A stretch of DNA of 60,066 nt, taken from positions 1 to 60,066 of the forward strand of contig CAYZUL010000006.1 in the NCBI GenBank assembly GCA_964481895.1, in the 5' to 3' direction. Positions 8,701-30,137 of this stretch are shown piece by piece. The translations under genes and the position numbers were made by a program. How positions within the stretch are numbered: position 1 is the stretch's first letter; every line of letters starts with the position of its first letter. The notes under the pieces are model-generated. The model saw only the letters and a list, made by a program, of their open reading frames with translations, was not told where the DNA came from and did not search any database. The DNA comes from an uncultured Nitrospirota bacterium. Lineage in GTDB: Bacteria; Nitrospirota; Nitrospiria; JACRHA01.

Positions 8701-9537
8701 TTAAATAGAAAAAATTGCAGGCCCTTTGTGTCCCTTCTGCCTTGCGATGATTTCCAGGGGAAGGGATACGATGTTGATTATGCGCATGTCCGTCTCTTTT
8801 AGAAGGCAATTCTTGTCAATTAACTTGATATAACCGTTACAATTTCCACAGATACTGAGATGATATCTATCCTCATCCTTGATACCGAGGGCACCGACCA
8901 TCTTTTTGTCATCTACGCCACAGAGAAGACATCCCGGTCCTTTATATTTCCATTCCATCCAGCAGAAGGTACAGTATAAATGCCTCCCCTCCTCTTCCAG
9001 GTTGGCCATATTCGGCTGCTCTCCGCATGTGGGGCAAAAGGGTTCATCCCACCAAGCTATATCAAAATTGTCCTGCACTGTCGACGATAAGAACCTTAAG
9101 GATGGTGCCAATGAGAGCCCAGCCAGCAAAAACAACGTTTCTTCTGAAAGGGCTAATCTCTCTGTAAGTCTCCTTAGCTCCTCCTCATTGCCGGATAACA
9201 CGGCTTTCAAGGCCGACTCTATATCTGTCATTTTTATTTTGGCCCTCACCTCCTCTGCCTGATGCCTGAACTGATCCGAGGCATCCTTTATCAGCTCAAG
9301 GACGATAAAAAAGAGGTCTATGCTATTTTTAAGATCCAACAGTGGAGTTTTAGATGGATCGATTAGCGGGTTGCCATCTGCCAGCCGGTCTTTTATGTTT
9401 TTTTTCGATATGTCAATAAGAGGTGAGAGATCGTCCGGACGGCTCGACTCCTGTTTTTCCAGGAGGAGTCCGTAGAATTTGAGTATAGGTCCTAAGTCGT
9501 GGTTTTCTTTTATAAGATGTTCTATCTCAGGATGCAT
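8701..9537 (-). CDS. fdhE: FdhE-like formate dehydrogenase accessory protein
   Basis: Helical N-domain followed by W...FCPTCG..P, R.L.CTFC..EW, CLLCG, CGNC.GYIK..D. Confidence 0.75.
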   Translation of the reverse strand: MHPEIEHLIKENHDLGPILKFYGLLLEKQESSRPDDLSPLIDISKKNIKDRLADGNPLIDPSKTPLLDLKNSIDLFFIVLELIKDASDQFRHQAEEVRAKIKMTDIESALKAVLSGNEEELRRLTERLALSEETLFLLAGLSLAPSLRFLSSTVQDNFDIAWWDEPFCPTCGEQPNMANLEEEGRHLYCTFCWMEWKYKGPGCLLCGVDDKKMVGALGIKDEDRYHLSICGNCNGYIKLIDKNCLLKETDMRIINIVSLPLEIIARQKGHKGPAIFSI

Positions 9538-21524: not shown

Positions 21525-23282
21525 ATGAGAGTATACTTAAGATTATTAGTATTTCTTAAGCCCTATTGGCCAAAGTTGGCAGCTGCCTTCCTCTGTGCGG
21601 GGATAGTCGCGTTGTCAACGGCCGGATATGCATGGCTTGTCAAGCCTGTATTAGACGATATATTCATCCGTAAGGATCAGTTCATGCTTCTTATCCTGCC
21701 CGTTATTATCCTTGCTGTGACGGTTTTAAAGAGCCTCTCTCAATACGGTAAGGGCTATCTTATGAGGTATGTAGGCAGCAGGAGCATAGCCGATATCAGG
21801 GAGCGACTTTATGAACGGATAATCTCCCTTCCAATAGGATTTCACTCAAATAATGCCACAGGTAAAATGATATCGAGGGTGATCAACGATGTGGGAGTCA
21901 TGCAGAGCGGGATGTCCGGGGCAATAAAGGATATCTTTCAGCAGACTGTTACCATGATAGCACTTTTTTTCGTAATCTTTTATCAAAACGGGAGGCTTGC
22001 CATCATAGCCATCCTCATATTCCCCTTCGCATATTTTACGATTGTAAAGATGGGAAAGAGGCTGAAAAAAATATCACATTCAAGCCAGGAGAGGATGTCA
22101 GATCTGACGACTCTGCTGCAGGAGACCCTCTCCGGTATAAGGATAGTAAAGGCCTTCGGGATGGAGGCATATGAGGTCAGGAGGTTTTCCAACAAGAACT
22201 CAGAATACTTCCAGAGGATTATGAAGGGAGTTAAGGTGTCGGAGTTAAGTTCCCCGCTGATGGAGGCCATAGGTGCTGTAGGGGCAGTTGCCATCATCTG
22301 GGCCGGCGGATATGAAGTCATACAGGGAAGGATGACCCCTGGGGCCTTCTTCTCCTTTTTGACCGCATGCTGGCTCCTCTATGCCCCGGTAAGGCAGCTT
22401 GGAACAGCTAACAATGAGATTCAGCAGTCATTGGCAGCTGCAGAGCGTGTATTCCATGTTATGGATGAAGAGACAGAAATCGGGAGGGATACAGGGAAAC
22501 AGGGGATAAGCTCAGTCAAAGAGGCGATAGAGTTCAGGTCTGTCTATTTCCGGTATGACGGAATTGAGGAGGGGATAATCTCTGATATAAACCTTAATGT
22601 AAAGGCCGGAGAGGTAATCGCTGTTGTAGGAAGCAGCGGCAGCGGCAAGACAAGCCTTTTAAACCTCCTTCCCCGGTTCTATGAGCCGACATCGGGTTCA
22701 ATCTTAGTTGATGGCATTGATATAAAGGACATAACCATTCCATCACTAAGGAGGCAGATCGGGATTGTGGGACAGGAGACATTCCTCTTCGATGATACAG
22801 TCAGAAACAACATAGCCTACGGCAGAGTCGATGTGGGCATGGAGGAGATAATCAGTGCGGCGATTGCCGCATATGCGGACCAATTCATAAAAGGGCTTCC
22901 TGAAGGTTATAACACCGTGATAGGCGAGAGGGGAAACAGGCTGTCCGGCGGGGAGAGACAGAGGCTTGCCATAGCTAGAGCAATACTGAAGGATCCTCCG
23001 ATACTTATCCTGGATGAGGCCACATCCTCTCTTGATACGGAATCGGAATATATGGTGCAGAGGGCCCTCTTTAATCTTATGCAGGGGAGGACTGCTTTTG
23101 TCATAGCCCACAGGCTGTCAACGGTCCAGCATGCGGACAAGATTATAGTCATAGACAAGGGCAGGATTGTTGAAGAGGGGAGTCACGAGGAGCTTTTGAG
23201 AAGAAAGGGGGCCTATCATCGCCTCTATCAGATGCAATTTATGAATGACAAAGACGGGAGCTACGGCTATGCAGGCGGTTAG
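21525..23282 (+). CDS. msbA: lipid A flippase ABC transporter
   Basis: 6-TM domain plus NBD (GSSGSGKT, LSGGERQR, DEATSSLD); lipid A context. Confidence 0.93.
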   Translation: MRVYLRLLVFLKPYWPKLAAAFLCAGIVALSTAGYAWLVKPVLDDIFIRKDQFMLLILPVIILAVTVLKSLSQYGKGYLMRYVGSRSIADIRERLYERIISLPIGFHSNNATGKMISRVINDVGVMQSGMSGAIKDIFQQTVTMIALFFVIFYQNGRLAIIAILIFPFAYFTIVKMGKRLKKISHSSQERMSDLTTLLQETLSGIRIVKAFGMEAYEVRRFSNKNSEYFQRIMKGVKVSELSSPLMEAIGAVGAVAIIWAGGYEVIQGRMTPGAFFSFLTACWLLYAPVRQLGTANNEIQQSLAAAERVFHVMDEETEIGRDTGKQGISSVKEAIEFRSVYFRYDGIEEGIISDINLNVKAGEVIAVVGSSGSGKTSLLNLLPRFYEPTSGSILVDGIDIKDITIPSLRRQIGIVGQETFLFDDTVRNNIAYGRVDVGMEEIISAAIAAYADQFIKGLPEGYNTVIGERGNRLSGGERQRLAIARAILKDPPILILDEATSSLDTESEYMVQRALFNLMQGRTAFVIAHRLSTVQHADKIIVIDKGRIVEEGSHEELLRRKGAYHRLYQMQFMNDKDGSYGYAGG

Positions 23283-23951
23283 CAGGAGGATTAAAATTAT
23301 TGTCCTCCCATACCTTGGGAGCATCCTTCTGAGGCTGATCCGTCTAACCATGAAGATGGAGACGATCGGCTTTGAGCTTGCAGGGCCATTCTTTGAGAGC
23401 AGCAGGAATGTAATATTTGCCTTCTGGCATGGAAGACAGTTGATGATGCCCTTTGCGCCCTATCCTTACAAGAGCAGGAGGGCTGTTGTCCTTATCAGCA
23501 TGCACCGTGACGGTGAACTGATAAGCAGGACGATCGGATATTTTGGGTTTCAGTCAATAAGGGGTTCAACAACGAGGGGAGGGTCGAGGGCCTTCCTGCA
23601 GATGCTAAGGATGGCCAGAGAAAACCTGGACCTTGTGATCACGCCTGACGGGCCCAGGGGACCTAGATTTACGGTCCAAAAGGGCATAATAGAGATCGCA
23701 AAGAAGACCGGCCTCCCTATCTTCCCTGTTGGTTTTAGCGCATCAAAAAAAAAATTTTCAATAGTTGGGACAGGTTCCTGCTGCCGATGCCATTTTCAAG
23801 GGGCCTGTTCATAATGGGAAATCCCATCTGGGTTCCGGAAGACTCGGATGAGCTGATCATTGAAAAAAAGAGGTTAGAACTCGAAGAAGAGCTCAACATC
23901 ATCACAGAAAAGGGAGACAGATACTGGGATCAGCCTGAGGCAGGCAGCTAG
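23269..23951 (+). CDS. DUF374 (LpxJ-like) lipid acyltransferase, split by a frameshift at an A10 run (23745-23754)
   Basis: Frame 0 has FWHG, S.HRDGE, RGSTTRGG, TPDGPRGP up to SKKK; the -1 frame continues IFNSWDRFLLPMPFSRG...G.PI.V to TAG 23949-23951, 2 nt before waaA. Confidence 0.88.
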
Positions 23952-23953
23952 AG

Positions 23954-25249
23954 ATGGCAATCCTGATTTATAATATCATTACCATAGTATCAATTCCTTT
24001 CCTCCTTCCATTTTTTATATACCGTATACTTTTTGATCCCAGTTACAGGAAGGGGACGGGTAACAGGCTTGGAATCCTGCAAGGGGAGATCAAAGATGGA
24101 ATTGATGATGGCAGGAGGTACTGGTTTCATGCCGTCTCTGTAGGCGAGGTGATGGCCGCAGCCCCTTTGGTTAAGATTTTTAAGGATAGACACCCGGACT
24201 CTGTCATAATATTTTCTACTGTTACAGATACAGGCAACAGGACTGCAAGGGCCCAGATCCCCGGGGTCGATCATTTTATCTACTTTCCCTTCGATCTTTT
24301 CTGGATAGTAAAAAGGGTAGTGAAGGCTATGAGGCCCAGGCTCTTTATCTTCTTTGAGACCGAGATATGGCCTAACCTCCTCTTGTGTCTAAAGAGAGAG
24401 GGCATCCCTTCAGTGATGGTAAATGGAAGGATCTCCGACAGGTCATTCGCCAGATATAAATTAGTCAGGCAGGCACTAAAGAAGGTGTTAGGTGCTGTGG
24501 CCCTCTTCCTGATGCAGACAGAAAAGGACAGGGAAAAGATCGTAGCCCTTGGCGCAAACCCCTATAAGGCATTTAATACCGGGAACACTAAATATGATAG
24601 GGCGTTGGAATTGATAATGAGAGAAAAGGGGTGTGGATTAACAAGGGCGGACATGAATATACCTGATGGGACTGCTGTGATAGTTGCAGGGTCTACACAT
24701 CAGGGTGAGGAAGAGATGCTTATTGATGTCTTTAGGCGGATATTGGCCGGATACCCGGATACTATGATGATAATTGCCCCCCGGCATCTGGACAGGTTAA
24801 ACAGGATCGAGGCCCTGATTGCAAGTTCAGGGCAGTCCTTCTTTAGGAGGAGTAAACTTGGAGGGGGGGTTGAGGCAAAGGGCGGCACTATTATAATCCT
24901 TGATACAATAGGAGATCTCTTTGGCCTCTACAAGATTTCAACGATTGCCTTTGTAGGGGGAAGCCTTGTCCCTGTTGGCGGGCATAATATACTTGAGCCT
25001 GCTGCCCATGGAAGGCCTGTGATATTCGGGCCCTATATGGATAATTTCCATGACATAGCAACCCAGATCACGGAGCGGGGCGGGGCAGTGCAGGCCCAGG
25101 ACCGGGATGATCTGTATATAAAGATAGATAAGCTCTTGTCAGACAGGGATTCCCTTGAGAGGATGGGAGTGGAGGCAAAGAGGTTTGTAATGGAGAATTC
25201 CGGTGCCACAGAGAAGAGCATGAAATTGATCGAGAGGTATATTAACTAG
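23954..25249 (+). CDS. waaA: Kdo transferase
   Basis: WFHAVSVGE, ETEIWPN, GNTKYD, GSTH.GEE, PRH, GGHNILEPA. Confidence 0.96.
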   Translation: MAILIYNIITIVSIPFLLPFFIYRILFDPSYRKGTGNRLGILQGEIKDGIDDGRRYWFHAVSVGEVMAAAPLVKIFKDRHPDSVIIFSTVTDTGNRTARAQIPGVDHFIYFPFDLFWIVKRVVKAMRPRLFIFFETEIWPNLLLCLKREGIPSVMVNGRISDRSFARYKLVRQALKKVLGAVALFLMQTEKDREKIVALGANPYKAFNTGNTKYDRALELIMREKGCGLTRADMNIPDGTAVIVAGSTHQGEEEMLIDVFRRILAGYPDTMMIIAPRHLDRLNRIEALIASSGQSFFRRSKLGGGVEAKGGTIIILDTIGDLFGLYKISTIAFVGGSLVPVGGHNILEPAAHGRPVIFGPYMDNFHDIATQITERGGAVQAQDRDDLYIKIDKLLSDRDSLERMGVEAKRFVMENSGATEKSMKLIERYIN

Positions 25250-26370: not shown

Positions 26371-27253
26371 TAGGCTCTACAGATCAATAGAGTATTATAT
26401 CTTTATTCTCTCCCTGAAGGCCCTCTCGCTTTTGCCCCTTACATTTACGGCAAAGGCCGGCGAGGTAATCGGGGGACTCCTCTATGTAATAGACCGGAAG
26501 CACAGGGCCATTGCCATGAAAAACCTCAATATGGCACTGGGAGGGGAGAGGGGTTTAGATAGTTTAAAGCAGATTGCCAGGAGATCCCTTGAGAATCTTG
26601 GGAGATCGGCAGGCGAGTTTATATCTATCAGAAGATATACCAAAGAGAATATCAGGGAATTTATTACTATCGAAGGCCTGGAGAATTTTGAGTCTGCCCA
26701 TAAAGAAGGGAGGGGTGTTATCCTGCTCACCGGGCATTTTGGTAATTGGGAACTCCTGGGTATAGCTATATCACTCCTTGGCTATCCATTCCATGTTGTG
26801 GTCCGGCCGCTTGATAATAGGCTCCTTGACAAAAGGGTAAACGAGTTAAGATCCATTGGGGGCAATAAGGTTATTTACAAGAAGAATGCCCTAAGTGAAT
26901 CCCTCAGGCTTTTAAGAAAAAGAGAGCTGGTAGGATTTCTCATCGATCAGAATACAAGCAGAGAAGAGGGGGTTTTTGTAGACTTCTTCGGAAAGAGGGC
27001 AGCCACAAACAGGGGCTTGGCATTGATCGCATTAAAGAGCGGGGTCCCGGTAATTCCGGTATTTATCATACGGGAAGGTCCGGTATACCATAGGGTTATC
27101 TTTGAGAAGGGGGTCGAAGTAACCAGGAGCGGAGATATTTCGGAAGATATTACCAATAACACCCAAAGATTTACTAAGGTAATCGAATCATATATAATTA
27201 AACACCCTGACCAATGGCTCTGGGTGCATGACAGATGGAAGACCAGGCCCTGA
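26342..27253 (+). CDS. lpxL: lipid A late acyltransferase (LpxL/HtrB family)
   Basis: HFGNWE, FLIDQ, PDQWLWVH.RWK. Confidence 0.9.
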   Translation: MRKKGESTLDRLYRSIEYYIFILSLKALSLLPLTFTAKAGEVIGGLLYVIDRKHRAIAMKNLNMALGGERGLDSLKQIARRSLENLGRSAGEFISIRRYTKENIREFITIEGLENFESAHKEGRGVILLTGHFGNWELLGIAISLLGYPFHVVVRPLDNRLLDKRVNELRSIGGNKVIYKKNALSESLRLLRKRELVGFLIDQNTSREEGVFVDFFGKRAATNRGLALIALKSGVPVIPVFIIREGPVYHRVIFEKGVEVTRSGDISEDITNNTQRFTKVIESYIIKHPDQWLWVHDRWKTRP

Positions 27254-28426: not shown

Positions 28427-28965
28427 ACAGGGATGGCACAATCAATAAAGAGTCAGGTTATATAGACAGGCCTGATATGATAGAACTTATACCAGGGTCG
28501 GCTGAGGCCATAAGGATGATAAATTGCATGGGGCTTAATGCGGTGGTTGTTACAAATCAGTCCGGCATAGGGAGGTCCTATTTCAAGGAGGAGTCTTTAA
28601 AGGAGGTTCATAGAAGACTAAAAGAGATCCTTATGGAAGAGGGGGCATATATTGATGCCATTTACTATTGTCCCCACCACCCTGATGAAGGCTGTGATTG
28701 CAGGAAGCCGATGCCTGGTCTCCTGAAAAAGGCCGCGTCAGAGCTTGATATCGATCTTTGCTCATCATATGTTATAGGTGATAAGATAAGCGATCTTATC
28801 CTTGCCCTAAATGTAGGGGCAATGGGGATACTGGTCAGGACAGGTTATGGATCAGAGACTATTGAAGCTGTCAGAGATCAAGAGGGTCTTTCAGGCCTGG
28901 TTGCAGAAGACCTCTTAAGCGCAGTCAGATGGATAAAAGAAGACATAAAAAAATACTCATCATAA
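28402..28965 (+). CDS. gmhB: D-glycero-D-manno-heptose 1,7-bisphosphate phosphatase
   Basis: FIDRDGTIN, TNQSG, CPHHP..C.CRKP, IGD..SD. Confidence 0.93.
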   Translation: MGRIAVFIDRDGTINKESGYIDRPDMIELIPGSAEAIRMINCMGLNAVVVTNQSGIGRSYFKEESLKEVHRRLKEILMEEGAYIDAIYYCPHHPDEGCDCRKPMPGLLKKAASELDIDLCSSYVIGDKISDLILALNVGAMGILVRTGYGSETIEAVRDQEGLSGLVAEDLLSAVRWIKEDIKKYSS

Positions 28966-30137
28966 AACCGAGTTCCCTCGGGGATATTGTTCATTCACTT
29001 CCTACTCTAAAGGCGGTCAGGCAGCTCTTTCCGAAGGCATTTATATCATGGCTTGTGAAGGAGGAGTGGGCGGGGATCCTGGCAGGGAATCCATATCTGG
29101 ACGAGATCCTCTCTTTCCCCTTTACCCTGAAAGGGATGCCGCAGATAATCGGATCAGTCAGGAAGAGGAGGTTTGACCTGGTCCTGGATCTCCAGGGACT
29201 TCTGCGCAGCTCGGTGATCAGTTTTCTATCCGGTGCATCGATAAGGATCGGCTATGAGAGTGCCAGGGAGGGTGCCAAGATATTTTATACCGAGAGGGTA
29301 AAGGTCCCTTTGTTAGATATTCATGCTGTTGACCGCTATATGCTTTCTGTTGGGATAGAAGGGTTTGTCCCATCCCCATCTGATTTCTACATAAAGATTG
29401 ATCAGGCTGATACCGGCTATGTAAGGGAGATGCTGGCCATAAATAATTCTGTAAATTCGCCTCTTATAGCGATAAACCCGCAGGCAAGATGGAAGACAAA
29501 GCTTTGGCAACAGGAGCGCTTTGATCTGCTTGCAGACCTGCTGGCTGATAAGTTTGGCGCAAGGATCGTTTTAATTGGCGACAATAAAGACAATTTAGGC
29601 GGAGATGAAGCGACGCGAGCCCCTTTGGGGTATCTACATAGCGAACAACGTGAGCGAGAGGGGGATGGTCGCTCCCCTGAGATAGAACAGCGAGCGAAGT
29701 CGAGCGTAGGGAGGGGGAGGCTCCATCCGGCTCTGCCGGTGGAGGGGGATGGTCGCTCCCCTGAGATTGAAGCGACGCGAGCCCCTTTAATAGACATGAG
29801 GGGAAAAACCAGCCTAAAACAGTTGGCCGCACTGTTGAAGGAGGTCGACCTGCTTGTCACCAACGATTCAGGACCAATGCATATAGCGGCAGCACTGGGA
29901 ACCCCTGTTGTTGCCATCTTCGGACCAACAGATCCGAAGAGGACAGGGCCCTATGGAGAAAGACACAGGGTCGTCCGGGGCTCTGCTCCGTGCAGTCCCT
30001 GTTTTAAGAAGAGATGCGGCATGCCGAGCCATCTCTGCATGGAGGCGATTAGCGTTGAGATGGTGTTGGAGGAGATATCAAACATACTGAGAAGTAATAA
30101 TGCTGGATCAGTCGGCGCAGAGAGGACCGAAAAATAG
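28929..30137 (+). CDS. waaC: GT9 heptosyltransferase (WaaC-like) carrying an in-frame repeat-element insertion
   Basis: KPSSLGDIVH, DLQGLLRS, NDSGPMHIAAA, FGPTDP; about 60 aa of non-family sequence at 29606-29788. Confidence 0.85.
   Translation: MDKRRHKKILIIKPSSLGDIVHSLPTLKAVRQLFPKAFISWLVKEEWAGILAGNPYLDEILSFPFTLKGMPQIIGSVRKRRFDLVLDLQGLLRSSVISFLSGASIRIGYESAREGAKIFYTERVKVPLLDIHAVDRYMLSVGIEGFVPSPSDFYIKIDQADTGYVREMLAINNSVNSPLIAINPQARWKTKLWQQERFDLLADLLADKFGARIVLIGDNKDNLGGDEATRAPLGYLHSEQREREGDGRSPEIEQRAKSSVGRGRLHPALPVEGDGRSPEIEATRAPLIDMRGKTSLKQLAALLKEVDLLVTNDSGPMHIAAALGTPVVAIFGPTDPKRTGPYGERHRVVRGSAPCSPCFKKRCGMPSHLCMEAISVEMVLEEISNILRSNNAGSVGAERTEK
29606..29788. repeat. composite palindromic element within the waaC-like CDS
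   Basis: 21-bp direct repeat 29606-29626/29768-29788; 26-bp direct repeat 29658-29683/29742-29767; hairpin CTCCATCCGG-CTCTG-CCGGTGGAG; GGGTATCTAC 29628-29637. Confidence 0.9.

Follow-up and report, generated by a model that had tools for sequence, protein, structure and literature searches.

The lpxJ gene examined here, a candidate late acyltransferase gene of lipid A synthesis, runs into ten adenines and then breaks off in its own reading frame, and the missing part of the protein continues in the −1 frame. Is this a sequencing error, a decayed gene, a phase-variable switch or a recoding site at which the two frames are joined during expression? The gene lies in the 60,066 nt stretch of DNA that we analysed (the window), which belongs to an uncultured Nitrospirota-type bacterium with a genome of 2.86 Mb and 46% GC.

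The lpxJ locus and its two reading frames

The gene is located in a lipid A gene neighbourhood together with lpxB, msbA, waaA and lpxK. The features relevant for the break are the following, in positions of the window.

21525..23282, plus strand: msbA, encoding the lipid A flippase, upstream neighbour of lpxJ, its 3′ end overlapping the lpxJ start (TIGR02203 above cut-off)
23245..23814, plus strand: lpxJ (DUF374) in frame 0, 189 amino acids, with W61, H62, H87, D89 and D135 and then a non-conserved tail (PF04028, motif positions)
23745..23754, plus strand: A10 run, the putative slippage site, longest A/T run in the genome; A9–A11 in 154 of 154 broken orthologs
23754..23951, plus strand: −1 frame segment, the C-terminal 65 amino acids of LpxJ (frame translations, Trp-to-stop length and invariant W, D, P and G)
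23766..23771, plus strand: codons for Trp-Asp (W175-D176 if the shift takes place), the counterpart of Rickettsia LpxJ W172-D173 judging by motif and spacing
23768..23810, plus strand: stem of 12 bp with a 19-nt loop, real, not conserved and probably incidental (folding, pairing in orthologs)
23954..25249, plus strand: waaA (Kdo transferase; PF04413), beginning 2 nt past the −1 frame stop

The original prediction had assigned the gene to the DUF374/LpxJ acyltransferases, and the PF04028 domain bears this out (E 5e-28; 96.9 bits with a cut-off of 26.8; residues 74–141). Translation can start at ATG 23245 or ATG 23272. The gene is the sole DUF374 match in the genome; a search of the genome for a second (backup) lpxJ copy found none, and two LpxL/M-family genes are present. 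In its context TCA AAA AAA AAA TTT, the run is followed in frame 0 by a tail of 19 residues past the lysines, ending with ...SKKKFSIVGTGSCCRCHFQGACS* at 23814. Open from 23739 onwards, the −1 frame reads IFNSWDRFLLPMPFSRG... and closes with a TAG whose last base is 23951. The coordinates of the run, both frames, the need for a −1 shift and the spacing to waaA were all confirmed.

In Rickettsia typhi LpxJ, the substitutions W60A, H61A, D86A, D132A, W172A and D173A each lead to loss of activity, as reported in PMC6148475. The window counterparts W61, H62, D89 and D135 are encoded in frame 0, W175 and D176 only after a −1 shift; this equivalence is a match in motif and spacing. The likeness to the late lipid A acyltransferases LpxJ of Rickettsia, Helicobacter and Campylobacter extends to PF04028, the W-H, H-x-D, D(GP) and W-D motifs at matching spacing, and the lipid A gene neighbourhood (PMC6148475). 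In contrast to the present gene, where an A run separates W-D in the −1 frame from the rest and acyltransferase activity is predicted from sequence, no frame break is described for these enzymes in the available part of that paper. Solved structures include no relative by sequence (best E 0.35). In an AlphaFold model of a naturally intact ortholog (in genome G056; pLDDT 92.5, pTM 0.87), strands 164–166 and 171–176 and a 30-residue helix (188–217) fall past the break position. As the Trp-Asp pair as well as these modelled strands and the helix come after the break, the truncated frame-0 LpxJ is probably inactive.

The A10 of lpxJ is the only run of 10 among the 28 A/T runs of at least 9 in the genome. 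Nine A9 runs lie in frame within long open reading frames of the same genome, an indication that ordinary genes tolerate an A9 by itself. The run length was checked on contigs rather than reads, covering the site in seven sequencing runs (X2 does not cover it), a material in which rare run-length alleles are invisible. A contig from the possible source sequencing run is identical to the window at the A run. Related contigs from five other studies (P2–P6: X3, X5, X7, X8, X14 and X18; ~92–97% identity) differ by between 8 and 61 substitutions per piece and span the run free of indels. Both the A10 and the break recur in a same-genus genome (G001; 93% amino acid identity).

Elsewhere in the window, a copy of a dispersed genomic repeat (29602–29788) lies in frame inside a GT9 heptosyltransferase gene (28929–30137), to which it adds ~54 residues; the copy is flanked by direct repeats of ~25 bp, and pieces of the repeat are found on more than 20 contigs.

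Conservation of the break and selection on the run and the −1 frame

We searched two genome sets, 61 relatives with 42 matched and 401 genomes of the phylum with 233 matched, ~251 of them distinct. A single-protein scan of genome contigs gave only 2 loci. From 207 matched loci fetched, 201 were scorable; we left out four that are cut off by the end of a contig and two distantly related in-frame homologs in which the anchor motifs are missing. In two distant in-frame DUF374 homologs (L112 in G040 and L113 in G045), SWC replaces SWD.

The −1 break was found at the same place in 154 of the 201 scorable genomes, belonging to 12 families; these genomes are kin, and the counts are not independent trials. 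Within the window's class, 140 of 144 genes are broken. The rest of the phylum comprises three mostly broken families (14/15) and four without a run-linked break (41 intact genes and one +1 gene). All 154 broken genes have a run of A9 (125), A10 (26) or A11 (3), none a shorter one. Among the 46 intact genes, 45 have runs of at most 8; the exception is an A10 that lies in frame in G261, a genome assembled as a single contig. The run-linked breaks are −1 in all 154 cases; shifts in both directions were not found among the orthologs. In one DUF374 gene (L103 in G237) the frame is broken in the +1 direction, slightly upstream of this site and with no A run; it is likely an error or a pseudogene.

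The gene order is largely retained, with msbA upstream in 149 of the 154 broken loci and waaA downstream in 149 of 154. The gap between lpxJ and waaA measures at most 25 nt in 62 of 143 broken and in 15 of 25 intact genes. We rejected a special translational coupling to waaA, since this tight spacing is not enriched in the broken genes.

The break also occurs in a second phylum. Of 301 genomes from the phylum that includes an Acidobacteriaceae genome, 23 matched a pattern leading from A9 to Trp-Asp, with 0 matches for the reversed control. The same −1 break was confirmed in 20 of the 301, namely in those 20 of the 23 matches in which a PDGP motif precedes Trp by 122 nt; the remaining three lack the anchor motif. 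No waaA was found within ~1.5 kb of the Acidobacteriota matches. Because the pattern requires A9, these matches are uninformative on run length.

A quick tree computed from the N-terminal part of the protein with 126 subsampled rows placed intact forms repeatedly inside broken groups, with at least eight changes forced by strong branches; its deep branches are weak, and we make no claim on the origin of the site. Repeated reversions to an in-frame gene imply that recoding is dispensable in some lineages. At the lysine positions intact orthologs read, for example, STKQ, SRKE or YWI, so the lysines are dispensable for the protein. A supported clade of seven in-frame Nitrospira-like proteins with replaced lysines (e.g., STKQ; P0051, P0053, P0056, P0062, P0076, P0093 and P0096) constitutes a natural control lineage.

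The codons at the two edges of the run are fixed. At the 5′ edge the serine codon is TCA in 137 of 137 genes, compared with 207 of 1859 serine codons (11%) elsewhere in the same genes. At the 3′ edge all 154 genes use AAA for lysine, compared with 538 of 1181 lysine codons (46%) elsewhere in them. In 41 other conserved amino acid columns of the 154 broken genes, the commonest codon reaches a share of only 0.30–0.84, and the mean GC content at third positions of the carrier genes is 67%. In 17 genes from three families the 5′ A is lost; in all 17 the codon past the lysines starts with A, compared with 28 of the remaining 137. This compensation, which rests on three families, keeps the run at nine or more.

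The part behind the run is conserved as protein. W, D, P and G of the −1 frame are invariant, with synonymous codons varying freely in the D, P and G columns, and the length from Trp to stop has a median of 58 codons in broken and 59.5 in intact genes. The frame-0 tails of the broken genes, in contrast, range from 1 to 81 codons and are not conserved. Judged from these codon patterns, the run and the −1 frame protein are under selection.

Proposed mechanism of frame restoration and rival explanations

With the break conserved in 12 families and a second phylum and with synonymous edges fixed, the reading as programmed recoding put forward in the original prediction is supported, and we consider recoding of some kind at the lpxJ run highly probable. 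Our preferred mechanism, which we judge to be the probable one from the sequence comparisons, is transcriptional: RNA polymerase would slip at the conserved run of at least nine A and insert an extra A in part of the transcripts. Slipped transcripts would be translated normally into a full-length, probably active lipid A acyltransferase, unslipped ones into a truncated, probably inactive protein. The run may thereby act as a fixed attenuator that limits LpxJ in comparison with the adjacent msbA and waaA, and lineages that went back to an in-frame gene would have lost the run. Bacterial RNA polymerase has an RNA-DNA hybrid of 9–10 bp, and it slips efficiently in vivo where 9 A or T stand in a row (PMC5009743). 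This length, about nine or more, is reached in 154 of 154 broken genes. It is the constraint to nine from both edges, matching the hybrid, that makes polymerase slippage the best reading. If the ribosome slipped at just one 7-nt site, one of the edges would be free to vary, and the fixation of both speaks against this; the 25 genes with A_AAA_AAG still retain the 5′ A, which that heptamer does not need. Against polymerase slippage counts the single direction of all 154 breaks, since according to the rule of Antonov et al. shifts in one direction only point to ribosomal frameshifting (PMC3711429). The in-frame A_AAA_AAA heptamer present in every broken gene and the nine A9 runs that this genome tolerates in frame count against it as well.

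The original prediction had also described a hairpin downstream of the run. It folds as described and extends from 11 to 12 bp, with 23768–23779 pairing with 23799–23810 (including three G-U pairs) and beginning 13 nt past the run, but a role as frameshift stimulator is not supported. With a z of −1.48 and 18 of 200 shuffled sequences folding equally well, its strength is not above chance. At least 11 of the 12 pairs are kept in only 4 of 154 orthologs, in which a control slid to +1 pairs even better than the stem (7.4 versus 6.8 of 12). Averaged over 44 broken genes, the folding z is 0.07; over 26 intact genes it is 0.12. We therefore rejected the hairpin as a stimulator and regard it as probably incidental. 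Neither a conserved 3′ structure or Shine-Dalgarno (SD)-like stimulator (SD-like 4-mer in 14/154) nor a conserved upstream structure was found in the broken genes.

Translation of a faithful mRNA with a −1 shift of the ribosome, by tandem slip on A_AAA_AAA or by sliding on iterated AAA codons, would yield the same full-length protein; as the sole route it is possible, although we think it rather unlikely. An in-frame A_AAA_AAA, conforming to X_XXY_YYZ, is found in 154 of 154 genes, with a second site A_AAA_AAC (84), A_AAA_AAA (28) or A_AAA_AAG (25), and the uniform direction of the breaks fits as well. Ribosome sliding on such AAA repeats is reported (PMC4363877) and might likewise favour a run of some nine A's; however, the same source gives sliding on two AAA codons in vitro as slower than normal elongation. 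A_AAA_AAG, the most shift-prone motif in E. coli by the ranking given in PMC5009743, occurs in just 25 of 154 genes, none of the broken genes relies on a run of 7 or 8 A or on a different heptamer, conserved hairpin and SD-like stimulators are absent, and the local stem in the window stands 13 nt away from the run. The peptide produced would be identical whether polymerase or ribosome slips, and the two may well operate side by side. That the site, shared by Nitrospirota and Acidobacteriota, is ancient and that its rate of RNA polymerase slippage senses nucleotide pools, temperature or elongation factors and so sets outer-membrane acylation is an extension that we consider unlikely.

The remaining explanations dispense with recoding. 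Phase variation, in which replication would add or drop an A and populations mix ON and OFF cells, had been suggested originally and is now disfavoured; we hold it to be improbable. The in-frame A10 of the single-contig genome G261 would fit it, contigs hide rare alleles, and 24 of 78 full-length database proteins among the matches listed have at least three lysines at the site, which may represent ON alleles, AAG-interrupted genes or gene-caller corrections. However, genes with a run of at least 9 are out of frame in 154 of 155 cases, contigs from the seven sequencing runs covering the site have no indel, and all 80 metagenome copies among the matches listed (of 119 stretches, from a pattern allowing a run of 7–12 bases) have A9 and none is in frame. 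Such selection on the C-terminal part would, moreover, not be expected in a gene that is OFF in nearly every assembly. It is very improbable that the truncated frame-0 protein is functional, or that two parts are made separately. The Pfam domain and the proposed catalytic His and Asp do precede the break, but the tail of 1 to 81 codons is not conserved, the −1 segment in the window has no start before the Trp-Asp pair, W172A and D173A abolish the activity of Rickettsia LpxJ (PMC6148475), and two strands and a 30-residue helix follow the break in the confident model of the intact ortholog. Least credible of all, and refuted by the conservation of the break, is that homopolymers were systematically misread or misassembled or that the gene is a decaying pseudogene, error having been the main alternative named originally. 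Homopolymers are error-prone and the check was made on contigs; against this stand the same break in five other studies, 12 families and a second phylum, spanning contigs without an indel, the other A9 runs of the same assembly that are in frame, and the lack of a run of at least 9 in 45 of 46 intact genes.

Known recoding systems and other runs in the genome

By analogy, the lpxJ site may work like Thermus thermophilus dnaX, Shigella flexneri mxiE and spa13, and the poly(A) frameshifts of insect endosymbionts. The dnaX gene is likewise a chromosomal housekeeping gene with a slippage run of 9–10 nt, and some dnaX genes consist of two open reading frames joined at A10 (PMC5009743, PMC3711429). 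However, dnaX yields two useful products, whereas the unshifted lpxJ product, without a conserved tail, looks useless. In mxiE and spa13, slippage gives an extended functional product ending at the start of the next gene (PMC5009743), as for lpxJ; these are plasmid secretion genes of a narrow group, in contrast to a core envelope gene in 12 families and two phyla. In Buchnera and Blochmannia, corrective slippage restores cell-envelope or biosynthetic enzymes (PMC5009743), but in AT-rich, eroding genomes, unlike the 46% GC genome here with its unique A10 and 67% GC at third positions. The magnesium chelatase genes of the GeneTack survey also combine a conserved −1 shift at A runs with a metabolic enzyme and in-frame homologs, with shift efficiencies in E. 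coli of 40% at 9 A and 63% at 11 A (PMC3711429); their runs go down to 7 A, whereas lpxJ breaks never have fewer than 9.

DUF374 is absent from the main text of that survey (PMC3711429), and we found no paper on lpxJ or DUF374 recoding; the GeneTack supplement or Figure 3 clusters, or Sharma et al. 2011, could list the family. In non-mobile housekeeping genes of bacteria, few instances of recoding with deep conservation are known. The lpxJ case concerns lipid A synthesis, spans 12 Nitrospirota families (including relatives with proteins named Nitrospira) and a second phylum, and offers natural in-frame revertants as controls. If lpxJ is recoded, databases store such enzymes as truncated proteins (41 of 120 homologs among the matches listed).

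A general poly-A recoding system was not apparent in the window genome: among the 28 runs of at least 9, only lpxJ and one flippase-like gene resembled in-gene frame switches (11 runs viewed by eye). The latter, a polysaccharide flippase-like gene (L358; PF01943 weak, below cut-off), is broken at a T9 at 27131 on the minus strand of contig G000:C19, with 183 codons before the run and 336 after it in the +1 frame, and has no match in two same-genus genomes. Its break may reflect phase variation, error or slippage. On the minus strand of contig G000:C71, an A9 at 9052 (L359) lies nine codons before the end of trpC, and the −1 frame is open into trpF; a slip there would yield a TrpC-TrpF fusion, and the arrangement is probably an ordinary stop-start overlap.
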